Both the position numbers and the translations under genes were made by a program. Source: a virus (taxonomy: Duplodnaviria > Caudoviricetes). Taken from it: a stretch of DNA of 62,510 bases. A model generated the notes under the pieces. It had not been told where the DNA came from and made no database searches. It was given only the letters and a program-made list of their open reading frames with translations. The DNA lies in IMG/VR virus record IMGVR_UViG_3300025570_000014, positions 1 through 62,510 of that record, one strand, 5' to 3'. Of this stretch, positions 2,288 to 49,160 are shown one piece after another (position 1 is the stretch's first letter; every line of letters begins with the position of its first letter).

Positions 2288-4591
2288 TCACAAGATACGA
2301 TCGATTCCTTCAATTACCAAGTCAGGAGTAATAGTCTCTATTTTATACCAATCTTCCATTAAATTTATTTTTTGGAAGGGATACCAATTCCAATTTGAAA
2401 CATCCATTCTATGGGTGCTAAAATATCCTGAAGGGGAGGTGTCATTGTATATTCGGGTGGTGTTTGATTTGAACTCACAATGATTTGGGTGGGTAAATGA
2501 AGAGATTAAAACTGTAGGGATGTTTAGAGCCCATGCTATCCAGGAAAGACCAGAACTAATACTAACATGGAATTCTGCCCCACTAATTATAGACATTACT
2601 TCATCTAGGGGTTTGTTGTGGAAGTGGTAATCACATTGAGGGGAACTATTCATAAAATTTTTAATTCCAAAATTTTTATGTTGGTCTACTGCTATTACTT
2701 TATATCCTTTGTTTTGTAGATGCTTTACAATTTGTTCCCAACCCCCAGGATAATTCCAATATTTGCATTGTGATGTAGATTGGATAGCAATAGTTACGTA
2801 TTTTTCTTTTATGGGGGAAATATTGGGAGATTTAAATCTAGGTATAATTTCTTTATATTCTAGTCCTAAAATATCAGATGATGTTTTTTGAAGAGGTTGG
2901 GTTTTAATATTATGGGGGTGATAAGAAGTATTAATTTTATCATTTTCATAATACCACCCTATTCCATAAGAAGTATGTAAATCTCCTACAGGGGTGCCAG
3001 GGGATACAAATTCTATTTGGGGATATTTTGACTGGAACCAATCGTTATGGAATGTAGAGCAAGTGACTTTGCAGTTATGTTTTTTTCTAAATTCTTCTAC
3101 ATAAGGGAACCATGCAATGGTGTCACCTATAGATTTACTATCTAAGTGTATGTAAACTTTTTTATCAGCTAGATCGAAAATATGCTCATGAATTTTAGTA
3201 TCGTTTTCCCAAATTTCTACTCTCCATTTTATAAAAGATTTATAATTGGGGGAAGTCCACATATTATTGGTAATAATACCCTCATGGATTAACTTATTAT
3301 TAATATCATTATAAAATTTAATTTGGTAATCTTGATTTAGGGGGCCTAGAATTTCACACTTTGCTCCATCTGTAAAGTCAAGGAGAATTTCGTTTTTAAG
3401 CTTTTTAGTTTTAAAATCTTTTAAGGTATCTATGCCTATTTCTGCTACCTTATCCCAATTAAAATCTCGATGGATTAGTTTTGCTTCTTCTAAAGCCCGT
3501 TTTTTATGGTCTGTGTAGTTTTCAAAAGCGTCTCTCATTACACGTGCTAAGTCTTGGAAATCGGGTTCATAGTAATTACCTACTGAAGAATTAAAATGGT
3601 TATAATCAGCATCCATTACGGGTTTTTCTCCTAATATCTTTACAGGAAGACCCTTTCCTTCAGCAAATTCCATTTGACCACTACATGCTGAATAGATTGA
3701 AGGAGTACCACAAGCCATAGCCTCAATTAAGGGTAAATTCCATCCCTCACTTCTAGCACAGGATACAAATACATGACCATTTTTTAAATAAGTAATATAA
3801 TCTTCTCTTGAGGGAAAATGTTTAATTTTTATTCTTTTATCAACAAGCCCATTGTGTTCTAAACGTTTTTCTGTAGTGCCGTGATTATCGCCTGAGAAGG
3901 GGTTATCAACTGATATAATTAAGTCTATAGGTTCGGATGGGTCAAATTCTTTAAGAAAAGTCTCTATAATTTCTTTAGTAGATTTTCTGTAGTCCCATCT
4001 CCCAAATAAAACAAATTTAAATCTTTTATCTTTGTAATCTAGTTTTTTAGAAAAAGGAGAAGGTTTAAAAGTATTAATATCTACCCCTTCAGGTACTACT
4101 TTAACCATATCAGGATCTGCTCCTTGTTTTATAGTACATTCAGCTTGCCATTTTGAGGGAACCCATATTTGATCATACTCCAATAACTTTTTAAAAAAAT
4201 GAGGAGGTTGGAGGGTAGATTCCCAAACATTATAGGCAATTTTGGGTTTGTTATAAGAATTATAAAAGTAGTGATGGTCTGTTTCTACTAAAACTAAATC
4301 AATATCTTGCTCAAACTTATTTTTATAATTGGGGTATATGGGAAATTCATCTCGTGTGTTCTTTCCCGTAGTTAGGGTTTGTTCTACTAATAATTTTTTA
4401 TCTAAATTATCAAGGTATAATTCACCGTTGTGGGGTTCATCATTATTTCCTTTCCAACTTTTTCCTACAGTAAAATTACGAATTTTTAAATCTACTTTTT
4501 CAGATAATTTTCTAAAAAAATCTCTAGAATGGTGATTATATCCGGTGGTTCCTATGTAAGAACAATGAACCTTTAATTTAGGTAATGACAT
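2288..4591 (-). CDS. Two-domain glycosyltransferase: N-terminal GT4-like (GT-B) + C-terminal Aah/TibC-like autotransporter O-heptosyltransferase domain
   Basis: N-half: GRWDYRK and RSEGWNLPLIEAMACG (GT4 E-x7-E motif). C-half: WRVEIWE, SKSIGDTIAWFPYVEEFRKKHNC, STSQCKYWN, SSGLSWIAWAL..PTVLISSFT, HCEF, typical of the Aah/TibC heptosyltransferase family. Confidence 0.8.
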   Translation of the reverse strand: MSLPKLKVHCSYIGTTGYNHHSRDFFRKLSEKVDLKIRNFTVGKSWKGNNDEPHNGELYLDNLDKKLLVEQTLTTGKNTRDEFPIYPNYKNKFEQDIDLVLVETDHHYFYNSYNKPKIAYNVWESTLQPPHFFKKLLEYDQIWVPSKWQAECTIKQGADPDMVKVVPEGVDINTFKPSPFSKKLDYKDKRFKFVLFGRWDYRKSTKEIIETFLKEFDPSEPIDLIISVDNPFSGDNHGTTEKRLEHNGLVDKRIKIKHFPSREDYITYLKNGHVFVSCARSEGWNLPLIEAMACGTPSIYSACSGQMEFAEGKGLPVKILGEKPVMDADYNHFNSSVGNYYEPDFQDLARVMRDAFENYTDHKKRALEEAKLIHRDFNWDKVAEIGIDTLKDFKTKKLKNEILLDFTDGAKCEILGPLNQDYQIKFYNDINNKLIHEGIITNNMWTSPNYKSFIKWRVEIWENDTKIHEHIFDLADKKVYIHLDSKSIGDTIAWFPYVEEFRKKHNCKVTCSTFHNDWFQSKYPQIEFVSPGTPVGDLHTSYGIGWYYENDKINTSYHPHNIKTQPLQKTSSDILGLEYKEIIPRFKSPNISPIKEKYVTIAIQSTSQCKYWNYPGGWEQIVKHLQNKGYKVIAVDQHKNFGIKNFMNSSPQCDYHFHNKPLDEVMSIISGAEFHVSISSGLSWIAWALNIPTVLISSFTHPNHCEFKSNTTRIYNDTSPSGYFSTHRMDVSNWNWYPFQKINLMEDWYKIETITPDLVIEGIDRIL

Positions 4592-4650: not shown

Positions 4651-6828
4651 TTATAGTTCTACCCAATCGTTGGATGGGTTAAAGAATACTAGGTTTGTGC
4701 CTACTTTATATCCCATTATTCTAACTACATCACCCGCTGCCGTAGGGGCTGTTGTAGTTAATCTTCCTGTAGCTGTTGATAGATATACTACATCTCCTAC
4801 TGACCCTCCAGGATCAGCAAATACATAGACAATGCCACGTATTACCATACCAGTATTAGAGTTGGTTGAGGTTGATACTCCCATAAATCCTTTAGAAGTT
4901 GATACGGCATCGGCATCTGAGAAAGTCCAAGCAGAACTACCAAGATAATAAACTCCTCCTGCTACAACTGTGTTACTATAAAAAGTAACTGTTTCAGCAT
5001 TAAATCCCTTATCGCCTGCAGATGATGCAGGACCCGCTGAGGATGCTATTTCACCTACTTCTAAAACAGATCCATTACCTGAAATGGTACTTGTAACAGT
5101 AATATCTCCGACAACAGACATAGTTGAGCCATTAAATGTAAAATTAGATTCAGCATTTAGAGTACCATTACCTACTGCTGTTACTACTCTATTATTAGCA
5201 TCATTTGCTATTGTAGGAGAAGTACCTGATGTACCTGAAGTACCTGAGGAACCGTCAGCACCGCTAGTTCTAGTTTTTACGTTACCACTACTATCTACTG
5301 TAAGGAATGTAGTTTCACTACCCACAGGAATAGAAGTAAATTGAGCATTTGATGCTGTTATAAATCCTCCAGCTTTAATATTATCGGATACTTCTAATTT
5401 TTCACTAGGTGAAGTAGTACCTATACCAAAATTACCTGTAGTATTGATATAACTATCCTTTGAGGCATAAGTTCTAAATACTATTTTTTCTGTATCATTA
5501 TCAAAGATACGAAGTTCCCCAGCATTTGTATCAGGAGGTGCTTGTGTATCATTTCCAATTTTAATAATATTTTCATCCGCTTCATTTTTTATAAAAATTC
5601 GAGGATTTTGAAAACCCCCCATTTCTATACTAGAACTAACAGCTATTCCAATATTTTGGCTATCGTTAGCAAAAAGTCCGTGCCCTATTTCAATAGCTTT
5701 TAAATCCCTTTCAGGGAGGTTAGGTCCATCTACTTCCAATACTAAAGACCCATATTGAAATGATGATTGTTCTCCTAATACTCTAGAATATATAGCTCCG
5801 GTACTTCCGGATACTAATAATTTACTTCCACTAAGTGCAGTATCTTCTATAACAAATGCTAATCTACTAGATTCAGCTCCTTCAGTAACGGAGCCACTAG
5901 GTACTGATAATATAAAATCAGGGGCCTCTTTACTAGAACCTTGTCCTGTTTTAAGTTCAAAAGTAGAAGCAGGTTTATCAGTTCCTATGCCTATTCTCGC
6001 ATCATCCCCTGATTTGGAAATAAAAAGGACTTCTTTAAGAACTTCATTAGTTTCTCCTACTAAAAATTTTATAGCTCTACTAGCTGTATCATAATTTATT
6101 TGGGCTGAGGCGCTTACAGGTTGTAGGGATCCTGAGATTGAAGCACTAGCGTCTGTATTAAAAAAATATATGTTGGGGACAGGGGTAAGTAATACTCCAC
6201 TTCGAGGGTCGGGGGAGGATGAAGTAACACTACTTAAAGTAATTTGACCCCCTCCTATTACAAGATTAGGACCATGGTCATTCCCTCCTCCTCCGGTAGG
6301 TTCATGAGTATCGTCACCATCAGATCCTGAGGGGTAAATTGTAATGTCTTTATTGTAAATTATATAATTATTAGGGTATTCACTTTGAGGTAGAACTCCT
6401 AATAAGAATATAGGTTTTTCTGTTTCTTGGGGGGTTACAAACGTGTATGCTAAGGATCCTTGTTCTCTAAATCCTGAGGTAGCATTAATTCCAGTTAAAC
6501 CGTTGTAATCTAAGGGTTGGTTTGATAAAAAGAGAGAGGTGTTAGTAGTAATAAACCCATTATCCGTTACTCCTTGGAGAGTATATTCGACATCTGCTAC
6601 TCCACTACCGGCATCACTGACGTCACCATTTACAAAATTAAGTGTAGTTGTAGGGTTAACAGTAGCTGTAATAGGGGTAGTTTTGGTAATTAAAGTTCCT
6701 CCTCCTCCAATAGAACTTGTTAAGGCAAAACTACCACTTGAAGCGTCCCATATAACCGCTCTATCTACAGAGGGAAATTCGGTAGGATCTAGTTCTACTT
6801 TTACATTATAATTAGTTTTTGTAGCCAT
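4651..6828 (-). CDS. Putative tail fibre / virion appendage protein (725 aa)
   Basis: Gly/Ser/Thr-rich; fibre motifs RIGIGTDKP and GNFGIGTTSPSEKLEV; short GSSGTSGTSGTS tract; C-terminal G.VGDVVYLST..G.LTTTAP domain. Confidence 0.7.
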   Translation of the reverse strand: MATKTNYNVKVELDPTEFPSVDRAVIWDASSGSFALTSSIGGGGTLITKTTPITATVNPTTTLNFVNGDVSDAGSGVADVEYTLQGVTDNGFITTNTSLFLSNQPLDYNGLTGINATSGFREQGSLAYTFVTPQETEKPIFLLGVLPQSEYPNNYIIYNKDITIYPSGSDGDDTHEPTGGGGNDHGPNLVIGGGQITLSSVTSSSPDPRSGVLLTPVPNIYFFNTDASASISGSLQPVSASAQINYDTASRAIKFLVGETNEVLKEVLFISKSGDDARIGIGTDKPASTFELKTGQGSSKEAPDFILSVPSGSVTEGAESSRLAFVIEDTALSGSKLLVSGSTGAIYSRVLGEQSSFQYGSLVLEVDGPNLPERDLKAIEIGHGLFANDSQNIGIAVSSSIEMGGFQNPRIFIKNEADENIIKIGNDTQAPPDTNAGELRIFDNDTEKIVFRTYASKDSYINTTGNFGIGTTSPSEKLEVSDNIKAGGFITASNAQFTSIPVGSETTFLTVDSSGNVKTRTSGADGSSGTSGTSGTSPTIANDANNRVVTAVGNGTLNAESNFTFNGSTMSVVGDITVTSTISGNGSVLEVGEIASSAGPASSAGDKGFNAETVTFYSNTVVAGGVYYLGSSAWTFSDADAVSTSKGFMGVSTSTNSNTGMVIRGIVYVFADPGGSVGDVVYLSTATGRLTTTAPTAAGDVVRIMGYKVGTNLVFFNPSNDWVEL

Positions 6829-6848: not shown

Positions 6849-7112
6849 TTAAGTAGCAGCAATTTTAATACAATATTCAGCTGTTAGGTATTTAACAGGT
6901 TCATAACTAGCAAGCAAGCTAGCAGTTAAAGCGGCATTTAAAGTAGTAGTTAAAGAAGCATCTAGAGAAGCAGTTAAAGAAGCATTAAGTTCTTCAACAT
7001 TCCACAATGTAGAATCTATTGTAAGGGTAGGAAAGTTAGATCCTAAAAGGGGACCTCCAACTATACCTGTTAAAATGGATCCTGTTAAACTTGCATCTAG
7101 ATTACAACTCAT
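6849..7112 (-). CDS. Small hypothetical protein with L(D/N)ASLT repeats
   Basis: Start overlaps upstream stop; LNASLTASLDASLTTTLNAALTASLLAS periodicity. Confidence 0.6.
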   Translation of the reverse strand: MSCNLDASLTGSILTGIVGGPLLGSNFPTLTIDSTLWNVEELNASLTASLDASLTTTLNAALTASLLASYEPVKYLTAEYCIKIAAT

Positions 7113-7522
7113 TATATTGGTCTGTACCCATCAGAAGTAAATATTGATTTCTTAGGTATGAAGGTCCCTACGGCTGCTACTAAACTTGTATCTTCATCAC
7201 CCGTAGGACTAACTACTAATTCGGTATAATATGTTACGTTTTCTGTTAGGACTCCACCACTATTTACAAAATCCGCTTGGGTAAAAAATACTTGGATTTG
7301 AGTTCCTCCGTTGGGGATAACAACTTGGAAGGGTGAAGAAGGCATACCTGGTACCCATACACTTGTGCATTTCTCTAATACTGATACTCCTCCTTCAGTT
7401 AAAGAACACCCCCACCATGCATCCCAGTTAGTATCAAAGTTGGAAGTTAAATCTGTGAAAGTATATAGTAAAAGAAAAGTATCGTCTTCAAATTTTATAA
7501 AGTCTTGATTAAAAGATGCCAT
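7112..7522 (-). CDS. Hypothetical structural protein, paralogue of 7562..8284
   Basis: Shared FNQ..I.FED..F, WWGCS.T.GGVS.LEK, FTQ.D...SGG.L, YY.EL and SIF...GYRP. Confidence 0.7.
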   Translation of the reverse strand: MASFNQDFIKFEDDTFLLLYTFTDLTSNFDTNWDAWWGCSLTEGGVSVLEKCTSVWVPGMPSSPFQVVIPNGGTQIQVFFTQADFVNSGGVLTENVTYYTELVVSPTGDEDTSLVAAVGTFIPKKSIFTSDGYRPI

Positions 7523-7561: not shown

Positions 7562-8284
7562 TTAGGGTCTATATCCTTCAGCACTAAAAATTGAGGGTCT
7601 TACTTGTAAAGTACCTTGAGCTATTACTTGGGTAGGTACATTGTAGATAGCACTATAATTTAAGGTTTCACCTGCAATCAATTCCCAATAATAAGTTTCG
7701 CCTGTTTCTAAGGGGCCTCCACTAGCTTCGTAATCATCTTGGGTAAATTCTACAGTAACAAGAGCAGGACCCGTTCCATTATCTGTAGCAGTAAGGTATA
7801 TGTTTCCTGTAGAGGGAGGTATTTCCGTTGGGAGATTATTGGATGTTAAAGTTATAATAGCATCTGTAGTACTTCCAAGAGCAGATGATGGTAGGGTTAA
7901 AGTGTCTCCATCTTCATATCCTACTCCTCCATCATTTATAAAAGCATAAGTGATCACACCCGCAGTTTGTTGAGTAGTAATTTTAGCCCCACCACCATCT
8001 TCTCCGGGTAGAGTGGGTATGGTGTATTGAAAAAGATTGATGGTTGCATCTGTTGTATTAGTAGTAATAGAACTTAATATGTTTCCTGTAAAGATCCCTC
8101 CATCCCAGTTACTATTTGCCTTTTCTAAAATAGAAACACCTCCAAAAGTGGTAGAACATCCCCACCAAACATTATCATCTGCTGCTAAGTTATATTGAAT
8201 ATTATATTGAATAGGAATTACAGGAAATTCTACATTAAAAAATTCATCTTCAAATGTTATGATTTGTTGATTAAATGTATTCAT
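7562..8284 (-). CDS. Hypothetical structural protein, paralogue of 7112..7522 with an inserted DGG.GY beta module
   Basis: Same blocks as its neighbour plus about 100 extra residues. Confidence 0.7.
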   Translation of the reverse strand: MNTFNQQIITFEDEFFNVEFPVIPIQYNIQYNLAADDNVWWGCSTTFGGVSILEKANSNWDGGIFTGNILSSITTNTTDATINLFQYTIPTLPGEDGGGAKITTQQTAGVITYAFINDGGVGYEDGDTLTLPSSALGSTTDAIITLTSNNLPTEIPPSTGNIYLTATDNGTGPALVTVEFTQDDYEASGGPLETGETYYWELIAGETLNYSAIYNVPTQVIAQGTLQVRPSIFSAEGYRP

Positions 8285-8294
8285 TTTTTAATTA

Positions 8295-11200
8295 TTACAA
8301 ATCGTTAAAAATTCTAAATGTTAATGAATGCTTGTAGAATAAGCTATAATCAAGAGTATTGTATACTTTAAATCTTAGAATGTTGTTTGTAACATCAACA
8401 TCCTCTGCTTGAATGTATATTTGTTCCAAGTTTAGTCTGGATTTAGTGTATTCAGGAACTAAGTATGGGATCGTAAGGTTTAACACTACATCATCGGTGG
8501 ATGTTGTTCCTCCTATATCGGCCCCATCAATTGTGATTGCTGTAGTTGTTGAATATCCACTTCCCCCATCTGTTACTATTATTGAAGTAGCAAGTCCTGT
8601 ATTTCCTATTACAACTGTGGCTTGTGCTCCTGTTCCTCCTCCTGTAATACCAACAGGACCATAGGACCCTTGGGTCTTATTTCCGGGGTCTGTGGCTACT
8701 ATACTTATTAATTGGGTTTGAGCAATTTCAGTAGTTACACTTTGTGAAACGAATGTTCCATCTACTTCAGTAATAGTAAAATCATATAGATAGTTTTTAC
8801 TTAAAAATGCCCAAAGGGTACCTGTAAATTTCAATGTAGCACCTGCTCTGATGAAGGGGTCAGCAACGGTTCCTGTTCCGCTATTATTTCCTTTTAATAT
8901 AACCATTCCATCAAATTCAACTACATCGAATGTGCCAAAGCTAAGCCCCGTATTAAAAATATCAGTTCCTGGGTTACCCACGGATCCTGCAGGTACACTA
9001 TCTAATATAGACCAATTTTCTGTGATTGATGTACCTGAAGTACCTGATGAGCCTGATGTGCCTGATGAACCACTAGTACCTGAAGAACCTGATGTGCCTG
9101 AAGAACCAGATGTACCCGAAGCTCCCGTCATACCTGAAGAGCCTGAAGTACCTGAAGAACCTGAAGTGCCTGAGGAACCACTAATACCTGAAGTACCTGA
9201 AGAGCCTGAGGTACCTGATGAGCCACTAGTACCTGAAGAACCTGAAGTACCTGATGAACCTGATGTGCCTGAAGCACCTGTCATACCTGAGGAGCCAGAA
9301 GTGCCTGAAGAGCCTGAGGTGCCTGAGGAACCACTTGTACCTGATGAACCACTTATACCCGAAGTACCTGATGAACCACTTGTACCCGAAGAACCATCTA
9401 TACCTGAAGTGCCTGATGAACCTGAAGTACCCGATGAACCATCTATACCTGAGGTACCCGATGAACCACTTGTACCTGAAGAACCGTCTATACCTGAAGT
9501 ACCTGATGAACCACTTGTGCCTGAAGAACCATCTATACCTGATGTACCTGATGAACCTGAAGTACCTGAAGAACCGTCTATACCTGAAGTACCTGATGAA
9601 CCACTTGTACCTGAAGAACCGTCTATGCCTGAAGTACCTGAAGAACCTGAAGTACCCGATGAACCGTCTGTGCCTGATGAACCTGATGAACCTGAAGTAC
9701 CGTCTATACCTGAAGTACCTGATGAACCACTTGTACCTGAAGAACCATCTATACCTGAAGTGCCTGAAGAACCTGAAGTACCTGAAGAACCATCTATACC
9801 TGATGTACCTGATGAACCACTTGTACCTGAAGAACCATCTATACCTGAAGTACCTGATGAACCACTTGTACCTGATGAACCATCTATACCTGAGGTACCT
9901 GATGAGCCACTTGTACCTGATGAACCGTCTATACCTGATGTACCTGATGAACCTGAGGTACCCGATGAACCGTCTATACCTGATGTACCTGATGAACCTG
10001 AAGTACCTGAAGAACCACTTGTTCCTGAGGTGCCGCTAGAACCTGAAGAGCCACTAGTACCCGAAGAGCCTGAAGTACCTGAGGCGCCTGTCATACCTGA
10101 TGAACCGGATGTGCCTGAAGAGCCGTCTATACCTGCAATCCCTGAAGTACCCGATGAACCACTGGTGCCTGATAAACCACTTGTTCCTGAAGAACCTGAA
10201 GTGCCTGATGAGCCTGATGTACCTGAGGAACCACTAGTACCTGAAGAACCTGAAGTACCTGAAGCCCCTGTCATACCTGAAGAACCCGAAGTACCTGAAG
10301 AGCCTGAAGAGCCTGAAGTACCTGAAGAACCTGAGGTGCCCGATGAACCATCTATACCTGAAGTACCTGAAGTGCCTGAAGAACCTGATGTACCTGAAGA
10401 ACCTGATGCTCCTGGGGCTCCTGCTAGGTTTATACACCATGTATAAGAGGTAATTGAAGACCAAGACCCTGTGGAAGAAGTAACATTAATTTCAATATTT
10501 CCAGTTCCTGAGTTATAATTGTTTACGGTACCCTCAATAAAATTAGAGGAATCAATTGCTAATATTATGTTCTGCCCCGCAGTATAAGCTAATCCGGATC
10601 CTATAGCAATAGTAAGAGGGGATGAAGGAGGGTTTGAAATTGTAAGGTTATTAACACATGCAGCATAGATATCTCCATCGGTTCCTGAAGCACCTGATGA
10701 GCCTGAGGTACCTGATGAGCCTGATGTGCCTGAAGAACCACTAGTACCTGAAGAGCCATCTATACCTGAAGTGCCTGAGGAGCCTGAGGTACCCGATGAG
10801 CCGGATGTGCCTGAAGCACCTGTCATACCTGATGAACCTGAAGTGCCTGAAGAACCTGAAGTGCCTGATGAACCCGAAGTGCCTGAAGTGCCTGAAGTAC
10901 CTGATGAACCGTCTATACCTGAAGTGCCTGAAGAACCTGAAGTACCTGAGGCACCTGTCATACCTGAAGAACCTGAAGTGCCTGAAGTGCCCGATGTGCC
11001 AGAGGAACCCGATGTGCCTGATGAACCTGAAGTACCTGATGAACCTGAAGTACCTGAAATACCCGATGAACCTGAGGAACCACTAGTACCTGAAGAACCA
11101 CTAGTGCCTGAAGAACCTGAAGTACCCGAAGCTCCGGTCATACCTGAAGAGCCTGAGGTGCCTGATGAACCTGAAGTGCCTGAAGAACCATCAATACCTG

Positions 11201-14200
11201 AGGTGCCAGAAGAACCACCGGTACCTGAAGAACCTGAAGTACCTGAAGAACCACTAGTACCCGAAGAACCGCTAGTACCTGATGAACCATTAATACCTGA
11301 AGTACCCGAAGAACCACTGGTGCCTGAAGAACCTGATGTACCTGATGAACCTGAAGTACCTGAAGCACCTGCCATACCCGAGGAACCTGAGGTACCTGAA
11401 GAGCCACTTCCACCTGTAGCTCCTGAGGTACCTGAAGAGCCACTAGTGCCTGAAGAACCACTAGTACCTGAAGAACCTGATGAACCTGCAGTACCTGATG
11501 TACCTGAAGAACCTGATGTTCCTGAGGCTCCTGTCATACCTGATGAACCCGAAGTGCCTGAAGAACCACTAGTACCTGAAGAGCCTGAGGTGCCTGATGA
11601 GCCACTTTCACCTGTTGCTCCTGATGAACCTGATGTACCCGATGAACCTGAAGTACCTGAAGAGCCGTCTATACCTGAAGTACCTGATGAACCACTTGTA
11701 CCTGAAGAACCATCTATACCTGAAGTACCTGAAGAACCACTAGTACCTGAGGAACCTGAAGTACCTGAGGAACCTGAAGTACCTGAAGCTCCTGTCATAC
11801 CTGAAGAGCCTGAGGTACCTGAGGAACCTGATAAACCTGATGTACCTGATGTACCTGAAGAACCACTGGTGCCTGAAGAACCACTAGTACCTGATGAACC
11901 CGAAGTGCCTGAAGAACCTGATGTACCTGAAGAACCTGATGTTCCTGAGGCTCCTGTCATACCTGAAGAACCTGATGTGCCTGAAGAACCACTTATGCCT
12001 GAAGTACCTGATGAACCTGCAGCACCTGAAGTACCCGAAGAACCATCTATACCTGATGTTCCTGAAGAGCCTGAGGTACCTGAGGAACCTGATACACCTG
12101 ATGTACCTGATGTACCTGAAGAACCACTAGTACCTGAGGAGCCACTGGTGCCTGAAGAACCTGATGTACCTGAAGAACCTGATGTGCCTGAAGCTCCAGT
12201 CATACCTGAAGAACCTGATGTACCTGATGAACCCGATATACCTGATGTACCTGATGTACCTGAAGAACCAGATATACCTGAAGAGCCTGATGTACCTGAA
12301 GAACCTGAGGTACCTGATGAACCATTTATACCTGAAGTACCGGATGAACCACTAGTACCTGAAGAGCCTGATGTACCTGAAGAACCTGAGGTGCCCGATG
12401 AACCATCTATACCTGAAGTGCCTGATGAGCCTGATGTACCAGAGGTTCCTGATGAACCCGATGCCCCTGGGGCTCCTGCTAAGTTTAAACACCATTCTAT
12501 AGTACCTGAGAATGTTCCCGTGTAAGTTAAATTAATTAATACTATTACCCCTGAATTGGGAGTATAACTATCTACTGTTCCTTCAATAAATTGGGTAGCA
12601 CTATGTGCTAATATTACATTCTGTCCTGCGGTATAAGCTAAATCAGTAGCAAAAGTTAAAGTAAGTGATGGTGGAGGGGTACCACTAGTAATAGTTTGAT
12701 TTGCACAATCCGCGTATACATCACCATCCGCTCCAGCAGCTCCTGAAGAACCTGAAGTGCCTGAAGTGCCTGAAGAACCATCTATACCTGAAGTGCCTGA
12801 TGAGCCTGATGTGCCTGATGAACCACTAGTACCTGAAGAACCTGATGTACCTGAAGCTCCAGTCATACCTGAAGAACCTGATGTACCTGATGAACCCGAT
12901 ATACCTGAAGTACCTGATGAACCTGCAGTACCTGATGTACCTGAAGAACCTGAAGTGCCTGAGGCTCCTGTCATACCTGATGAACCCGAAGTGCCTGAAG
13001 AACCACTAATACCTGAAGAACCCGAAGTACCTGATGTACCTGATGAACCTGATGTACCCGATGAACCTGAGGTGCCTGAAGAGCCGTCTATACCTGAAGT
13101 ACCTGATGAACCACTTGTACCTGAAGAACCATCTATACCTGAAGTACCTGAAGAACCACTAGTACCTGAGGAACCTGAAGTGCCTGAAGAACCTGATGTG
13201 CCTGAGGCACCTGTCATACCTGAGGAACCTGAGGTACCTGAAGAGCCACTTTCACCTGTAGCTCCTGATGTGCCTGAAGAACCACTAATGCCTGAAGAGC
13301 CACTGGTGCCTGAAGAACCTGAAGTACCTGAAGAACCTGAAGTACCTGAAGCACCTGTTATACCCGAGGAACCTGAAGTTCCTGAAGAGCCACTTTCACC
13401 TGTAGCTCCTGAGGTGCCTGATGAACCTGACGTACCTGATGAACCTGATGTGCCTGATGAGCCATCCTCACCTGTAGCCCCTGAAGTACCTGACGAACCT
13501 GATGTACCTGAAGAACCACTAGTGCCTGAAGAACCATCTATACCTGAAGTGCCTGAGGAGCCTGAAGTACCCGATGAGCCTGATGTGCCTGAAGAACCAC
13601 TATCCCCTGTAGCTCCTGATGTACCCGAGGAACCACTAGTACCCGAAGAACCAGAAGTACCTGAGGCTCCAGTCATACCTGATGAACCACTAGTACCTGA
13701 TGAACCGCTAACACCTGAAGAGCCTGAAGTGCCTGAAGTGCCTGAAGAACCTGAAGTACCTGATGAACCGCTAAAACCTGAGGAGCCACTAGTACCTGAA
13801 GTACCTGATGAACCACTAGTACCTGATGAACCACTAGTACCTGATGAGCCTGAAGTACCCGATGAACCTGATGTACCAGAGGTACCTGATGAACCACTAA
13901 TACCTGATGAGCCTGAAGTACCCGATGAACCTGATGTACCTGAAGAACCACTAGTACCTGAAGAACCTGATGTACCCGAAGTACCTGAGGAGCCTGAAAT
14001 ACCCGATGAGCCTGATGTACCTGAAGTTCCCGATGAGCCCGAAATACCTGAGGAGCCTGATGTACCCGAAGCACCTGTCATACCTGATGAACCGGAGGTG
14101 CCTGAAGAGCCACTAATACCTGATGAACCACTGGTGCCTGCAGAACCACTAGTACCTGATGAACCTGAAGTACCCGATGTACCCGATGAACCTGATGTAC

Positions 14201-17200
14201 CAGAGGTACCTGATGAACCACTAATGCCTGATGAGCCTGAAGTACCTGATGAACCTGAGGAACCACTAGTACCTGAGGAACCTGATGAGCCTGAAATGCC
14301 TGAACTACCTGAAGTTCCTGAAGAACCTGAAACACCTGAGGTGCCTGAAGAACCTGAGCTGCCTGAAGTACCTGATGAACCTGATGTGCCTGAGGCCCCT
14401 GTCATACCTGATGAACCACTAGTACCTGAAGAGCCTGATGTACCCGAAGTACCTGAGGAGCCACTAATACCTATGGCGCCTGAGGTGCCTGAGGTGCCTG
14501 ATGAACCTGATGAACCTGAGGTGCCTGAGGAACCACTAATACCTGATGTGCCTGAAGAACCTGAAGTACCTGAGGCACCTGTCATACCTGAAGAACCTGA
14601 TGTGCCTGAAGAACCACTTATGCCTGAAGTACCTGATGAACCTGCAGCACCTGAAGTGCCTGATGAACCTGAGATACCTGATGTTCCTGAAGAACCTGAG
14701 ATACCCGATGTACCCGAAGAACCTGATGCTCCGGGGGCTCCCGCTAGGTTTATACACCATTGTTGAGAACCACTAAAAGTCCCTGTAGAAGAGGTAACTA
14801 TAATACTAATGCCCCCTGTTCCCGAATTATAGGACCCAACCGTTCCTTCAATTAGGTTATTAACATTACCTGGGGTAGCCAATATTATACTTTGTCCCGT
14901 TGTATAAGCTAATCCAATTCCTATAACAAGATTAAGGGTACCCGAAGCGGGGGAAGTGAGGGATTGGGTACTACAATTGGCGTATATGTCACCATCCTCA
15001 CCTGATGAACCCGAAGTACCCGAAGAACCACTAGTACCTGAAGAACCTGATGTACCTGAAGAACCTGATGTTCCTGAGGCACCTGTCATACCTGAAGAAC
15101 CTGATGTGCCTGAGGAACCTGAAGTACCTGATGAGCCAGCTGTACCTGAGGTACCAGATGAGCCTGATGTGCCTGAAGAGCCACTAGTACCTGAAGAACC
15201 ACTAGTGCCGGAAGAACCACTAGTACCTGAAGAGCCACTAGTACCTGAAGAGCCACTAGTACCTGAGGAACCCGAGATACCACTAGTGCCTGAGGAACCA
15301 CTAGTACCTGATGTACCTGAGGAACCACTAATACCCGATGTACCTGAAGAACCTGAAGTGCCAGATGAACCCGAAGTGCCTGAAGTTCCTGAAGAGCCAT
15401 TTATCCCAGAGGTGCCGGAAGAACCTGAGGTACCCGAAGATCCTGAAGTGCCAGATGAACCATCGATACCCGAAGTACCTGATGAACCTGATGTGCCCGA
15501 AGCCCCCGTCATTCCTGAGGAACCTGAGGTGCCTGATGATCCTGAAGAGCCGGCGGTGCCTGAGGTACCTGAAGAACCACTAGTACCTGAAGAACCTGAG
15601 GTACCTGAAGAACCATCTATACCTGAGGTACCTGATGATCCTGAAGAGCCGGAGGTGCCTGAGGTTCCTGAAGAACCACTAGTACCTGAAGAACCTGAGG
15701 CACCTGAAGAGCCTGATGTACCAGAGGTACCTGATGAACCACTAATGCCTGATGAGCCTGAAGTACCTGATGAACCTGATGTACCTGAAGAACCACTAGT
15801 GCCTGAAGAACCACTAGTACCTGCAGAACCGCTAGTACCTGAAGAGCCTGAAGTACCTGAAGTACCCGAAGAACCGTCTATACCTGAGGTACCCGACGAT
15901 CCTGATGAACCTGAGGTGCCTGAAGAACCTGATGTGCCTGAAGAACCACTAGTACCTGCCGAACCGCTAGTACCTGAAGAGCCTGAAGTACCTGATGCAC
16001 CCGTCATACCCGAAGAACCTGAAGTACCTGATGAACCTGCAGTACCTGAAGAGCCATCTATGCCTGAAGTGCCCGATGAACCTGAAGTGCCTGATGAACC
16101 ACTAATACCTGATGAACCACTAGTACCTGAAGTGCCTGATGAACCACTAGTACCTGATGTGCCTGATGAGCCACTAGTACCTGAAGAGCCACTGATGCCT
16201 GATGATCCCGATGTGCCTGAGCTACCTGAGGTGCCTGAGGAGCCTGAAAAACCTGAAGTGCCTGATGAGCCGGATGTACCTGATGTACCTGATGAGCCTG
16301 AAGAACCACTAGTACCTGAAGAACCTGAGGTACCTGAAGAGCCATCTATACCTGAAGTACCCGAAGAACCACTAGTACCTGAGGAACCATCTATACCTGA
16401 GGTGCCTGAGGAACCTGAGGAACCTGAGGTACCTGACGAACCTGATGAGCCTGATGAACCCGAGGTACCTGAGGCACCTGTCATACCTGAAGAACCTGAA
16501 GTACCTGATGAGCCTGATTCTCCAGATGTACCTGAAGTACCTGATGAACCTGATATTCCAGATGAACCTGAAGTACCTGATGAACCTGATGTGCCTGAAG
16601 AACCTGAAGAACCTGAAGTGCCTGAGGAACCGTCTATGCCTGAGGTACCTGAAGAACCTGAAGAACCTGAAGTACCAGATGAACCTGAAGTACCCGATGA
16701 ACCCGATATACCTGAAGTGCCCGATGAGCCTGAGGTGCCAGATGAGCCTGAGGAGCCAGATGTGCCCGAACTACCTGAAGTACCTGAAGAACCGGATGTA
16801 CCTGAAGCACCTGTCATACCTGATGAACCGCTAGTACCCGATGAACCCGATGATCCTGAAGTGCCTGAAGTGCCTGATGATCCTGCTGCTCCTGGAGCTC
16901 CCTCTAGGTTTATACACCATTGTAGAGAAGTAGGGGTAGGCCAATTCCCTGTTTGGGAAGTAATATCGATTTCTATATCCCCATTTGATGAGTTATATGA
17001 ATTAACTATTCCTACTATATACTGTGTGGCACTATATGCTAGTATTACAGTTTGACCTACTGTATATGCTAGTCCTGCGGCTATGTTTATATTAAGGGGG
17101 TCTCCAGGGGGATCGGTAATGGTTTGAGTGCTACAATCGGCATATATGTCACCATCTTCACCAGATGAACCCGAAGTGCCTGAAGTACCTGAAGTACCTG

Positions 17201-17645
17201 AGGAGCCTTCGGCACCCGATGATCCTGATGTACCTGATGAGCCGCTTCCTCCTCCTCCTGTTCCGTCATTATAATCTAATACAATACAAACTTCTTCCTC
17301 AGCATTTAATGGAAAATTACCAGATTGAGCACTAGCTCCTGCAGTTATTGTAAAAGATATATAATTAGTATTATCCGTTACAGCTGTGTAAGGAAAAACT
17401 GCGTAGTTAGCAGGATATTTTTTACTGTGTATTGTTAAATTACCTTTAGTACTATCTTTTAGGTAATCCGATATGTTAATATTATTAAGGTCCGATATGT
17501 TAATATCAACACGAGTTGTATTTCTAACATCTAAACTACTATAAAGACTTAATCTACCAGGGGAGGGGATTGTAGAGGGAGTTGAAACCTTGTAAGGTAT
17601 ACAAAATGCTCCTAAATCTCTATCTATAATAAATTTTTGTGCCAT
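8295..17645 (-). CDS. Giant Gly-X-Y (GSS/GTS) repeat fibre protein, 3116 aa, with four repeated ~90-aa spacer domains
   Basis: One open frame of 9.35 kb with globular N- and C-termini, Gly at every third residue in the repeat tracts, a late motif at 17665-17671, and a position downstream of the baseplate genes. Confidence 0.85.
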   Translation of the reverse strand: MAQKFIIDRDLGAFCIPYKVSTPSTIPSPGRLSLYSSLDVRNTTRVDINISDLNNINISDYLKDSTKGNLTIHSKKYPANYAVFPYTAVTDNTNYISFTITAGASAQSGNFPLNAEEEVCIVLDYNDGTGGGGSGSSGTSGSSGAEGSSGTSGTSGTSGSSGEDGDIYADCSTQTITDPPGDPLNINIAAGLAYTVGQTVILAYSATQYIVGIVNSYNSSNGDIEIDITSQTGNWPTPTSLQWCINLEGAPGAAGSSGTSGTSGSSGSSGTSGSSGMTGASGTSGSSGTSGSSGTSGSSGSSGTSGSSGTSGISGSSGTSGSSGTSGSSGSSGTSGIDGSSGTSGSSGSSGTSGSSGTSGSSGISGSSGTSGTSGESGSSGTSGSSGMTGASGTSGSSGSSGSSGTSGSSGSSGTSGIDGSSGTSGSSGTSGIDGSSGTSGSSGTSGSSGSSGTSGTSGSSGTSGFSGSSGTSGSSGTSGSSGISGSSGTSGSSGTSGTSGSSGTSGTSGSSGISGSSGTSGSSGTSGIDGSSGTAGSSGTSGSSGMTGASGTSGSSGTSGSAGTSGSSGTSGSSGTSGSSGSSGTSGIDGSSGTSGTSGSSGTSGSAGTSGSSGTSGSSGTSGSSGTSGSSGISGSSGTSGTSGSSGASGSSGTSGSSGTSGTSGSSGSSGTSGIDGSSGTSGSSGTSGSSGTSGTAGSSGSSGTSGSSGMTGASGTSGSSGTSGIDGSSGTSGSSGTSGSSGTSGINGSSGTSGTSGSSGTSGSSGTSGISGSSGTSGTSGSSGTSGISGSSGTSGSSGTSGSSGTSGSSGTSGSSGTSGSSGTSGSSGTSGTAGSSGTSGSSGTSGSSGMTGASGTSGSSGTSGSSGTSGSSGTSGSSGEDGDIYANCSTQSLTSPASGTLNLVIGIGLAYTTGQSIILATPGNVNNLIEGTVGSYNSGTGGISIIVTSSTGTFSGSQQWCINLAGAPGASGSSGTSGISGSSGTSGISGSSGTSGAAGSSGTSGISGSSGTSGSSGMTGASGTSGSSGTSGISGSSGTSGSSGSSGTSGTSGAIGISGSSGTSGTSGSSGTSGSSGMTGASGTSGSSGTSGSSGSSGTSGVSGSSGTSGSSGISGSSGSSGTSGSSGSSGTSGSSGISGSSGTSGTSGSSGTSGTSGSSGTSGSAGTSGSSGISGSSGTSGSSGMTGASGTSGSSGISGSSGTSGTSGSSGISGSSGTSGTSGSSGTSGSSGTSGSSGTSGSSGISGSSGTSGTSGSSGTSGSSGTSGSSGTSGSSGTSGTSGSSGFSGSSGTSGSSGTSGTSGSSGVSGSSGTSGSSGMTGASGTSGSSGTSGSSGTSGATGDSGSSGTSGSSGTSGSSGTSGIDGSSGTSGSSGTSGSSGTSGATGEDGSSGTSGSSGTSGSSGTSGATGESGSSGTSGSSGITGASGTSGSSGTSGSSGTSGSSGISGSSGTSGATGESGSSGTSGSSGMTGASGTSGSSGTSGSSGTSGSSGTSGIDGSSGTSGSSGTSGIDGSSGTSGSSGTSGSSGTSGTSGSSGISGSSGTSGSSGMTGASGTSGSSGTSGTAGSSGTSGISGSSGTSGSSGMTGASGTSGSSGTSGSSGTSGSSGTSGIDGSSGTSGTSGSSGAAGADGDVYADCANQTITSGTPPPSLTLTFATDLAYTAGQNVILAHSATQFIEGTVDSYTPNSGVIVLINLTYTGTFSGTIEWCLNLAGAPGASGSSGTSGTSGSSGTSGIDGSSGTSGSSGTSGSSGTSGSSGTSGINGSSGTSGSSGTSGSSGISGSSGTSGTSGISGSSGTSGSSGMTGASGTSGSSGTSGSSGTSGSSGTSGSSGTSGTSGVSGSSGTSGSSGTSGIDGSSGTSGAAGSSGTSGISGSSGTSGSSGMTGASGTSGSSGTSGSSGTSGSSGTSGSSGTSGSSGTSGTSGLSGSSGTSGSSGMTGASGTSGSSGTSGSSGTSGSSGTSGIDGSSGTSGSSGTSGIDGSSGTSGSSGTSGSSGATGESGSSGTSGSSGTSGSSGTSGSSGMTGASGTSGSSGTSGTAGSSGSSGTSGSSGTSGSSGTSGATGGSGSSGTSGSSGMAGASGTSGSSGTSGSSGTSGSSGTSGINGSSGTSGSSGTSGSSGTSGSSGTGGSSGTSGIDGSSGTSGSSGTSGSSGMTGASGTSGSSGTSGSSGTSGSSGSSGISGTSGSSGTSGSSGTSGSSGTSGTSGTSGSSGMTGASGTSGSSGTSGIDGSSGTSGTSGTSGSSGTSGSSGTSGSSGMTGASGTSGSSGTSGSSGTSGIDGSSGTSGSSGTSGSSGTSGSSGASGTDGDIYAACVNNLTISNPPSSPLTIAIGSGLAYTAGQNIILAIDSSNFIEGTVNNYNSGTGNIEINVTSSTGSWSSITSYTWCINLAGAPGASGSSGTSGSSGTSGTSGIDGSSGTSGSSGTSGSSGSSGTSGSSGMTGASGTSGSSGTSGSSGTSGSSGTSGSSGTSGLSGTSGSSGTSGIAGIDGSSGTSGSSGMTGASGTSGSSGTSGSSGSSGTSGTSGSSGTSGSSGTSGIDGSSGTSGSSGTSGIDGSSGTSGSSGTSGIDGSSGTSGSSGTSGIDGSSGTSGSSGTSGIDGSSGTSGSSGTSGIDGSSGTSGSSGTSGIDGTSGSSGSSGTDGSSGTSGSSGTSGIDGSSGTSGSSGTSGIDGSSGTSGSSGTSGIDGSSGTSGSSGTSGIDGSSGTSGSSGTSGIDGSSGTSGSSGTSGIDGSSGTSGSSGTSGISGSSGTSGSSGTSGSSGTSGSSGMTGASGTSGSSGTSGSSGTSGSSGTSGSSGTSGISGSSGTSGSSGTSGSSGMTGASGTSGSSGTSGSSGTSGSSGTSGSSGTSGTSITENWSILDSVPAGSVGNPGTDIFNTGLSFGTFDVVEFDGMVILKGNNSGTGTVADPFIRAGATLKFTGTLWAFLSKNYLYDFTITEVDGTFVSQSVTTEIAQTQLISIVATDPGNKTQGSYGPVGITGGGTGAQATVVIGNTGLATSIIVTDGGSGYSTTTAITIDGADIGGTTSTDDVVLNLTIPYLVPEYTKSRLNLEQIYIQAEDVDVTNNILRFKVYNTLDYSLFYKHSLTFRIFNDL
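9027..16886 (-). repeat. Degenerate 9-bp-unit coding repeat (Gly-Ser-Ser / Gly-Thr-Ser) in four tracts
   Basis: Tracts at about 9027-10406, 10680-12461, 12729-14726 and 14997-16886; plus-strand units such as cctgaagta, cctgatgaa and ccactagta. Confidence 0.95.
10407..17156 (-). repeat. Four copies of a ~90-aa domain (DGD(I/V)YA.C...LAYT.GQ..ILA...G.V..Y...WC(I/L)NL.GAPGA)
   Basis: Copies at 16887-17156, 14727-14996, 12462-12728 and 10407-10679. Confidence 0.9.
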
Positions 17646-17672
17646 AGATTAGTGGTTCTTCGTTATAAATAT

Positions 17673-18269
17673 TCAAGGTTTATAGTACCTTAAATATTTC
17701 TCTTGAAGATATTTTCCTAATCCATAAAAACCTTCATTTTTTTCTTTTAATTTTACTATACTATGATTTGTACGATATACTTGATTTTCATCTCCTGTTA
17801 ATGTCCAAGGTATATTAAAAGGTACCCAGTTTTGGAAATCTATAGTTGGACTATTTTGAACTAATGCGTTATAGTCAGATTCGGAAGTTTCTAAATAAAT
17901 AAATTCATTTCTACTTTTACAAAAAAATCTTCTAAATTCACCAAGTTGGTAATCCTGTTCAGTGGGTTGTGTAAAGAATAGTTGGGGGGAATTTCGTAAA
18001 TTATTTCCTGAGATTCCTCTTAAGAGTTTATAATTTTCATTTTCAACATTGTCTTTAATATAGACTTGAGTTTGGTTAGCTTGTACTGGTTCAGGAATTG
18101 GGATTAGGAGTCTATTGGGTTTATTATCAGGATTTTTTCCTGTAAATAATTGGCCCTTATATGTTTTGTAGTAGTACCCAATGTAAGGTTGGGTTGTTCC
18201 TTTGATTACATAGTTCTTTCCCGCAGTATACAGATTAGTTTGAATTCTACTTTTGGGAACATAGGGCAT
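17673..18269 (-). CDS. Hypothetical protein, baseplate region
   Basis: Clean ORF with late motif; context only. Confidence 0.65.
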   Translation of the reverse strand: MPYVPKSRIQTNLYTAGKNYVIKGTTQPYIGYYYKTYKGQLFTGKNPDNKPNRLLIPIPEPVQANQTQVYIKDNVENENYKLLRGISGNNLRNSPQLFFTQPTEQDYQLGEFRRFFCKSRNEFIYLETSESDYNALVQNSPTIDFQNWVPFNIPWTLTGDENQVYRTNHSIVKLKEKNEGFYGLGKYLQEKYLRYYKP

Positions 18270-49128: not shown

Positions 49129-49160
49129 TAAATATACGAATAAATATTACAAAAGCCAAC
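49129..49160 (-). promoter_or_regulatory. Composite promoter before the portal: host-type GTTG-N20-TATATTTA overlapping a TATTTAT late motif
   Basis: Plus strand TAAATATACGAATAAATATT at 49129-49148; CAAC at 49157-49160. Confidence 0.55.

Follow-up and report, generated by a model that had tools for sequence, protein, structure and literature searches.

What kind of structure is encoded by a viral gene of more than nine kilobases in which, over most of its length, glycine (Gly) recurs at every third residue? The question is raised by positions 1 to 62,510 of the IMG/VR record IMGVR_UViG_3300025570_000014, a viral sequence estimated to be 42% complete (this whole stretch of 62,510 nucleotides (nt) is hereafter called the window). 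The window is a fragment of an Immutovirus-like myophage, and its most unusual element is a giant fibre gene with a product of 3116 amino acids (aa). We propose, with moderate confidence, that this gene encodes a homotrimeric collagen-type beaded fibre of a phage that probably infects Bacteroidota.

The layout of the gene is given in Table 1, with tract limits set by a strict (G..)n pattern scan of the translation. An initial annotation, made from the letters of the window, had described an open reading frame (ORF) with Gly at every third residue and with the X and Y positions of the Gly-X-Y triplets filled almost only by Ser and Thr, which our analysis confirmed. The Gly-X-Y tracts total 806 triplets (12, 213, 225, 201, and 155), that is, 2418 of the 3116 residues, and their register is never broken. 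Each of the four long tracts, which we call rods, is directly preceded by one copy of a small spacer domain, which we call the knot. Across the 794 triplets of the rods, X is Ser or Thr in 641, while Y is Ser in 700 and Thr in 30. Gly makes up 33.3% of the tracts, and the other two positions are filled by Ser, Thr, Ile, and Met. The description of the protein as proline-free holds for the rods, which have a single Pro per long tract (within the opening GAP) and few charged residues, but not for the protein as a whole, which has 32 Pro located in its globular parts. The annotation had also counted 210, 222, and 198 triplets in the first three rods, each three fewer than our counts through the choice of boundary only, and its estimate of about 460 aa for the last tract fits ours. 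That these lengths are exact multiples of 9 nt is uninformative, as this is automatic for every uninterrupted in-frame Gly-X-Y tract. The assignment to collagen-type proteins is supported by the Pfam family Collagen (PF01391), the sole Pfam match on the whole protein, which scored 999.8 bits against a gathering threshold of 27.2 in 18 matched stretches, a score that is partly compositional. Large plus-strand ORFs within the gene are shadows of the repeat.

Table 1. Coordinates of the giant fibre gene, its parts, and other genes of the window discussed in the text
Feature	Position in window	Strand	Basis
Giant fibre gene, 3116 aa (P0001)	8295..17645	(-)	ORF list, translation, strict (G..)n scan, Pfam
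N-terminal globular domain, residues 1-131 (P0003)	17253..17645	(-)	14 syntenic viral loci, 32-61% identity
First short Gly-X-Y tract, 12 triplets, residues 132-167	17145..17252	(-)	(G..)n scan
Knot domain 1, residues 168-248	16902..17144	(-)	(G..)n scan, alignment, profile
Rod 1, 213 triplets, 1917 nt, residues 249-887	14985..16901	(-)	(G..)n scan
Knot domain 2, residues 888-968, copy used for folding	14742..14984	(-)	Alignment, fold model
Rod 2, 225 triplets, 2025 nt, residues 969-1643	12717..14741	(-)	(G..)n scan
Knot domain 3, residues 1644-1723	12477..12716	(-)	(G..)n scan, alignment
Rod 3, 201 triplets, 1809 nt, residues 1724-2326	10668..12476	(-)	(G..)n scan
Knot domain 4, residues 2327-2408	10422..10667	(-)	(G..)n scan, alignment
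Rod 4, 155 triplets, 465 aa, residues 2409-2873	9027..10421	(-)	(G..)n scan
C-terminal globular domain, 243 aa, residues 2874-3116 (P0002)	8298..9026	(-)	Homologue search, fold model
240-aa protein, paralogue of 136-aa neighbour	7562..8284	(-)	Sequence comparison
136-aa protein	7112..7522	(-)	Sequence comparison, synteny
725-aa protein, five-triplet GADGSSGTSGTSGTS tract	4651..6828	(-)	Match to phage immuto
767-aa two-domain glycosyltransferase	2288..4591	(-)	Profile scores, TibC alignment, neighbourhood counts
Tail-module genes before the fibre gene: 712 aa (tape-measure homologue), 557 aa, 815 aa, 198 aa	17673..25108	(-)	Matches to phage immuto, synteny
Three large genes upstream of the sheath gene	31759-33780, 33777-35639, 36538-38934	(-)	Profile scores
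Terminase	49147-50718	(-)	Relatives in IMG/VR

The Gly-X-Y periodicity does not stem from recent repetition at the DNA level. Exact repeats in the gene reach at most 107 nt, no 127-mer is repeated, and repeated 51-mers cover 2.8% of the gene positions. The long arrays reported by Tandem Repeats Finder match at merely 60-64%, and a general repeat scan detected only the 9-nt register, with listed copies 60-78% alike. Codon usage is mixed for Gly (GGT 550, GGC 189, GGA 49, GGG 8) and for Thr, and six Ser codons are used. These Gly, Ser, and Thr codons account for the raised G+C content of the gene (0.41-0.51, against about 0.33 in its surroundings). An unbroken Gly periodicity on top of drifting synonymous codons indicates that selection acts on the protein.

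A gene of this kind might be real and still owe its tract lengths, and hence its 3116-aa size, partly to short-read assembly. Parts of the window are contained in 20 public sequencing runs from 14 studies, and ten of these runs, all labelled freshwater or aquatic metagenomes, contain at least half of the sampled words. The Logan contigs of four runs, one from each of four studies, reproduced positions 8000-9072 and 16678-17900 and all four knots with 0-2 differences, which indicates that the phage exists in several places with these gene ends and knots. No contig from these four runs spanned any rod; the rods occur there as short pieces with many ambiguous joints. Furthermore, the contig ends inside the repeat in ten of 14 orthologous loci. 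In one orthologous contig (L085, contig 3300007344_000263) the fibre gene is cut short by a stop codon at residue 232, through an assembly error or a genuine frameshift in the first rod; its sisters L086 and L087 are intact. Against an artefact stand the scarcity of long exact repeats, the recovery of both ends and all knots in four studies, and a reading frame that stays open across 9.3 kb. In addition, orthologous contigs from two metagenome ids (L002 and L004) encode an identical 2891-aa product, and a contig from a third (L003) agrees with them in seven tracts from the 219-triplet one onward (219/63/26/128/172/14/7), which gives indirect support that such genes assemble reproducibly. Hence, we regard an artefactual size as unlikely. 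A separate observation concerns rod 4, where one contig in each of the four runs joins position 10225 to 10291, with 65 bases skipped and two other letters in between. This joint could be a length variant or a repeat shortcut; its shorter side has 26 letters, below the limit of 31, so it was not counted as a length variant.

The knots bear on the nature of the rods. The four copies are homologous, 80-82 aa long, and 48-54% identical to the first, with 25 invariant columns that include two Cys. A pattern search with the four knots retrieved 76 viral loci, and a profile built from them refound the knot in 63 open frames; in most of them a Gly-X-Y tract begins immediately after it or no more than a few residues later. 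In 34 examples printed with their flanks the junctions are kept, with G-D-x-Y before the knot and W-x-V/I-N-L-x-G-A after it. Meanwhile, the tracts beside these 34 knots vary widely in composition: some consist of Pro and Thr (GPTGPTGATG), some are rich in Gln (GIQGIQG, GYQGVQG) or contain Trp (GWSGISG), and others are Ser/Thr tracts (GSSGTSG). Since the same domain adjoins tracts of so many compositions, the Ser/Thr rods occupy the slot of ordinary bacterial collagen-like sequence. Of the comparative arguments for the rods being a collagen-like element, this is the strongest.

A monomer model of knot 2, built from a 39-row alignment, displayed a small six-stranded beta-barrel with a predicted local distance difference test score (pLDDT) of 92.2. 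Searched against BFVD, it yielded 16 matches at E <= 0.001 (template modelling (TM) scores 0.79-0.92, 26-43% identity), of which 12 bear the name 'Collagen triple helix repeat' and two the name 'Tail fiber protein'; all but one of the 16 come from uncultured Caudovirales phage. No PDB fold matched at E <= 0.001. The best PDB fold matches (ATPase N-terminal barrels, Upf1, and the norovirus P domain) are generic small barrels with TM scores of about 0.5, and were set aside. Trimer predictions for knot 2 with 36 and 39 flanking residues (38-row alignment) scored 0.22 and 0.27 against a mark of 0.42, values that count neither for nor against a trimer. The two invariant Cys (domain positions 4 and 77) sit in the first and last strands of the model and occur only in the knots of the window and of loci L002 and L005; in other relatives they are replaced by Thr and by Ala, Val, or Ile. 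In the model they would make a disulfide staple possible where the chain enters and leaves the knot.

The gene surroundings are those of a tail fibre. Annotation of the window with PHROGs and Pfam detected a terminase, portal, major head, sheath, and tube proteins, and a T4-type baseplate-hub-like protein. Flavobacterium phage vB_FspM_immuto (hereafter immuto), with a genome of 160 kb, has a sheath 54.8% identical to the one encoded here. The four tail-module genes before the fibre gene correspond to immuto gp037 (712-aa protein, sharing 27.5% identity over 549 aa with this annotated tape measure), gp035 (557 aa), gp033 (815 aa), and gp032 (198 aa). The order of these four genes followed by the fibre gene is the same in all 14 loci retrieved with the N-terminal domain. 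Thus, the fibre gene lies at the distal end of the tail and baseplate module, where tail fibre genes are expected, and its product displays the tail-fibre pattern of a conserved N-terminal part and a variable distal part.

The two terminal domains also trace a family of related proteins. In the protein atlas the N-terminal domain is found in unnamed viral clusters only. The C-terminal domain has 42 relatives at E <= 0.001 among 1.84 billion representatives, and consists of a conserved all-beta core, to which some members add an insert of about 100 aa with a GGSGY motif; its model (pLDDT 77.6) gave no fold match at E <= 0.001, with TM scores of at most 0.31. A peptide-pattern search of viral contigs retrieved nothing for the C-terminal domain, and a word-indexed search for the N-terminal domain among longer proteins, itself weak evidence, retrieved none. 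One orthologue (P0014) has only 598 aa, with the N-terminal domain at 34% identity (E 2e-20) and the C-terminal domain at 47% (E 1e-17). L086 and L087, which together with L085 are three contigs of one phage type, encode 2890 aa with five knots and rods of 8, 49, 219, 63, 26, 128, 172, 14, and 7 triplets, and L092 encodes 1621 aa with a single 437-triplet rod and no knot. Hence, rod number and length change freely among orthologues. Among 75 distinct Gly-X-Y proteins in the loci, 41 have less than 2% Pro at X and Y and 39 have more than 70% Ser plus Thr; multi-kb Ser/Thr tracts are present in several viral loci. The protein of the window is second in this set by triplet count (806, against 960 in the truncated L026). 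The family of giant collagen-like fibres is widespread in aquatic viral contigs. In loci L002-L096, tracts of more than about 100 triplets are almost always proline-free and rich in Ser and Thr, and the proteins with short tracts mostly have 12-30% Pro; this association could be a bias of mutational expansion or a functional requirement.

The gene, its periodicity, its domain plan, its gene order, the family, and the monomer fold of the knot as a model are direct results; based on them, we infer that the protein trimerises, forms triple helices, attaches to the virion, serves in adsorption, and is glycosylated, along the following lines. Judging from gene position, the 131-aa N-terminal domain would anchor the fibre to the tail or baseplate, and the C-terminal domain with its variable insert would be the distal, host-binding tip. 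The rods would be triple helices, in which Gly is needed at every third residue. The knots would set the register of the three chains, each nucleating the rod that follows it, and would act as joints. When extended, the fibre would be a beaded tether of about 0.7 µm that enlarges the capture radius of the phage in dilute water. The hydroxyl groups of Ser and Thr would probably stabilise the proline-free helix through hydration, and these residues may be O-glycosylated by the product of a neighbouring gene, described below.

Several points weigh against this proposal. The rods lack the stabilising imino acids (or Thr at Y, or charged pairs) of characterised bacterial collagens, for whose collagen-like regions a review (PMC8968730) gives Pro at 19-31% of X positions and Thr at 32-48% of Y positions. 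With one Pro per long tract and with Ser rather than Thr at Y, a stable triple helix is questionable for the rods. The N-terminal domain, the C-terminal domain, and the knot matched no Pfam family (E <= 10) and no PDB sequence, and tblastn against 50,697 GenBank phage records retrieved no match to any of the three; NCBIfam gave no match for the two terminal domains. As the globular parts thus match no known family, virion attachment and receptor binding are argued from gene position alone. The giant fibre gene is also absent from immuto, the nearest cultured phage, and is therefore accessory. Lastly, the exact rod lengths come solely from the original assembly.

How long such a fibre would be follows from simple arithmetic. 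A collagen triple helix rises by about 0.286 nm per residue, and the tail of a phage measures about 0.15 nm per aa of its tape measure protein. Folded as triple helices, the four rods would therefore span about 183, 193, 172, and 133 nm, with a sum of about 0.69 µm, next to a tail of about 107 nm computed from the 712-aa tape measure. The initial annotation had reached the same conclusion, with rods of roughly 170-190 nm and a whole of several hundred nm, well beyond the tail, and its arithmetic was right.

The annotation had further suggested that the similar rod lengths reflect selection on length. As an alternative within the same fibre model, rods 1-3 could be held near-equal by selection, for example because the fibre folds back at the knots and is stowed as a bundle that is deployed on contact. 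Rods within one protein are indeed more alike than rods across proteins (permutation p = 0.0026, 28 proteins with the window excluded, one near-duplicate pair, L051 and L064, being included), and the coefficient of variation of rod length in the window, 0.13, is the lowest among the 12 listed proteins with at least four rods. This within-protein likeness is a real but weak tendency, and a shared duplication history explains it as well as selection does. The knots are not recent copies, yet the rods that follow them are similar: window knots are 48-58% identical to each other and up to 64% identical to those of L002, and none is closer to its sisters than to some L002 knot, which makes the modules appear old. 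The knot tree, in which one of 11 inner branches is well supported, cannot be used to date the duplications. Length conservation is contradicted by the orthologues, which range from the 49/219/63/26/128/172 series of L086 to the single 437-triplet rod of L092 and the 598-aa version, and by rod 4 itself, which has 155 triplets and in which a 15-aa unit (GID-GSS-GTS-GSS-GTS) occurs 13 times, seven times in one run and six in another, pointing to ongoing expansion. The three near-equal values are also a small and post-hoc sample, and they come from the original assembly only. We therefore retain the idea of length selection as weakly supported, and judge a stowed, length-controlled bundle unlikely as well. 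Rods 3, 1, and 2 (201, 213, and 225 triplets) form an arithmetic series with a step of exactly 12, possibly by chance. A comparison of rod colinearity with fully shuffled triplets (z = 5-11) was discarded, since shuffling destroys the local alternation of GSS and GTS.

The gene content near the fibre suggests how the rods may be modified. The 767-aa protein carries an N-terminal GT4 domain and, at residues 394-741, a C-terminal domain of the TibC/Aah protein O-heptosyltransferase type. The latter scored 257.7 bits (cut-off 200) for TIGR04414, the Aah/TibC autotransporter strand-loop-strand O-heptosyltransferase family, and aligns to TibC residues 23-359 with an E value of 3.4e-48. In TibC, the key residues are the catalytic base Asp-110 and the sugar-binding Thr-226, Lys-230, Arg-286, and Trp-305, and an iron finger is formed by Cys-339, -342, -358, and -370 (Yao et al. 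2014, PMC4358343). Read from the alignment, Asp-110, Thr-226, Lys-230, and Trp-305 are conserved in the 767-aa protein. Homologues of its C-terminal half were found in nine of the loci retrieved through the knot. Conversely, Gly-X-Y ORFs (at least 12 triplets) occur beside relatives of this half in 12 of 30 loci; among 80 loci anchored on the terminase in the same phage group, none has one. With loci shorter than 12 kb set aside, the counts are 11 of 16 and none of 23. Near-duplicates among the positive loci reduce them to about seven distinct cases, and the control loci were not drawn from tail modules. We consider this link suggestive, and the 767-aa protein a candidate enzyme for modification of the fibre.

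Three observations speak against glycosylation of the rods by this enzyme. Arg-286 of TibC aligns with Val. The iron-finger residues Cys-339, -342, and -358 align with Pro, Tyr, and Tyr, while Cys-370 lies beyond the alignment. In addition, the glycosyltransferase-linked Gly-X-Y genes of the L116 group are Pro-rich, with 3-5% Ser plus Thr, so the link may not concern Ser/Thr rods specifically. A more far-reaching scenario, which we put forward as doubtful, is a 'glyco-collagen': the fusion of a GT4 domain with a TibC/Aah-type domain devoid of the iron finger would hyperglycosylate about 1500 Ser and Thr residues before trimerisation, the sugars would replace imino acids in stabilising a helix of micrometre scale, and the knots would provide both register and joints at which near-equal segments fold back and are stowed.

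The same enzyme and the same composition could be read in another way, with the tracts as extended, heavily O-glycosylated or disordered Ser/Thr/Gly linkers that form mucin-like brushes between beta-barrel beads. The near-absence of Pro, the few charged residues, and the recurrent link to a protein O-glycosyltransferase homologue would all suit such linkers. Nevertheless, a disordered linker needs no Gly periodicity, and not one of the 806 triplets is out of register despite synonymous codon drift; relatives also carry Pro-rich collagen-like sequence in the same position. This makes mucin-like linkers quite improbable. The initial annotation had also offered a compact polyglycine-II fold that binds ice or glycans. 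Such bundles need a Gly content of about 45%, with Gly turned towards the core, and are made of short helices that regular turns connect; the snow-flea antifreeze protein is one of them, with a tripeptide Gly periodicity and small residues. A Gly-X-X periodicity with small hydroxylated residues and a source in cold or temperate fresh water agree with this fold, but we find it hardly credible, as Gly is exactly one third of the rods with side chains at both other positions, the hydrophobic triplets are irregularly spaced (15-642 residues apart) with no regular turn motif found, and the knot adjoins classical Pro/Thr and Gln collagen-like tracts in relatives.

All genes of at least 120 aa outside the repeat are on the (-) strand, like the fibre gene, and no tRNA genes were found in the window. 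A 424-aa protein encoded downstream matches the immuto DNA polymerase. In the linear immuto record gp032 is the last gene and the polymerase the first; if these ends adjoin, the window would have five extra genes between the homologues of gp032 and the polymerase, namely the giant fibre, the 240-aa and 136-aa paralogues, the 725-aa fibre-like protein, and the 767-aa glycosyltransferase. The paralogues are 40-44% identical in two blocks and gave no family match. Their homologues lie directly downstream of the orthologous fibre in L085, L086, and L087 (two copies each) and in L092, and they could be candidate assembly factors of the fibre. At its C-terminus, the 725-aa protein shares 38% identity over 125 aa with gp047, which is annotated as a tail fibre in immuto.

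Among the three large genes upstream of the sheath gene, one encodes DUF285 repeats (366 bits), one a short GPAGPAGPAGQAGTS tract with a tail-fibre-like C-terminus (phrog_6953), and one scores 30.2 bits for YadA-head repeats over its whole length, above the cut-off of 25, none of its stretches being significant by itself. These are probably ordinary fibres or adhesins of the phage. The terminase has at least 599 relatives in IMG/VR, the best 80 of which (L127-L206) are 75-96% identical to it. The phage lineage of the window is thus very common in aquatic metagenomes, though the sheath of its nearest cultured phage is only 54.8% identical. The host is probably a member of Bacteroidota, because that phage infects Flavobacterium and because the knot also occurs in three Bacteroidota metagenome-assembled genomes, the latter being weak host evidence.

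These findings have implications for the understanding of both phage adsorption and collagen. Collagen-like phage fibres are already known, and those characterised in PMC3368898 are short and contain Pro. The proteins described here are set apart by four features: the family is widespread in aquatic viral contigs and unrepresented among the 50,697 GenBank phage records, its Gly-X-Y tracts run to hundreds of triplets with almost no Pro, an undescribed knot domain punctuates the tracts, and there is a recurrent link to a protein O-glycosyltransferase homologue. Should the rods prove to be triple helices, they would challenge the accepted sequence requirements for helix stability (the triple helix is reviewed in PMC13138384), and would offer biomaterials very long and simple rods that are genetically encoded and can be tuned in length. 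Adsorption in dilute water would have to be modelled differently for a tether of about 0.7 µm on a tail of about 0.1 µm. If the glyco-collagen scenario were true, it would mean that bacteriophages encode a system for collagen modification and that a collagen helix can be stabilised in a new way. Neither giant Ser/Thr Gly-X-Y phage fibres nor the knot domain nor a phage TibC-like enzyme was found described in the literature that we searched, from which most subscription journals are absent.

Among the closest known systems are entries of uncultured Caudovirales phage and Virus NIOZ-UU157 in UniProt and the IMG/VR loci L002-L093, which have the same knot within Gly-X-Y proteins and carry automatic names only. 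The proposal of collagen-like phage fibres goes back to Smith et al. 1998, as cited in PMC1079782, and orf028 of cyanophage P-SSM2 (Sullivan et al. 2005, PMC1079782), a near system by its description, is not known to be related to the fibre in its domains. The snow-flea antifreeze protein shares the tripeptide periodicity of the rods but does not fit them in Gly content or in their missing turns. Characterised counterparts are EPclA-D, side-tail-fibre proteins of E. coli O157 prophages (Ghosh et al. 2012, PMC3368898), which likewise consist of an N-terminal globular domain, one or more Gly-X-Y rods, and a C-terminal globular domain. As described there, EPclA forms a trimer and a triple helix by circular dichroism and rotary-shadowing electron microscopy, with a hinge between segments. 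EPcl proteins are built with PfN, Pf2, and PfC domains and a coiled coil, none of which was detected in the fibre of the window; PfN (PF08400), Pf2 (PF03406), and PfC (PF06820) were absent in Pfam searches of the fibre and of its N- and C-terminal domains even at E <= 10. Their longest collagen domain has 322 aa, in contrast to 2418 aa here in tracts of up to 675 aa, and the fibre of the window differs further in having a knot domain of its own and almost no Pro. The 767-aa enzyme resembles TibC/Aah (BAHT family; PMC4358343) in scoring above the TIGR04414 cut-off and in keeping the catalytic Asp, and TibC hyperglycosylates Ser in a long repetitive surface adhesin. It differs in being fused to GT4, encoded by a phage, and located beside a collagen-like fibre rather than a beta-helical autotransporter. 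Meanwhile, BclA of the Bacillus exosporium (PMC8968730) is a Thr-rich Gly-X-Y filament like the fibre of the window, and differs in being a spore surface protein with short Pro-containing repeats and no globular domain detected in common. Glycosylation of BclA is thought to aid the hydration network of its triple helix, according to the same source, and is the model for our suggestion that the giant fibre may be glycosylated.

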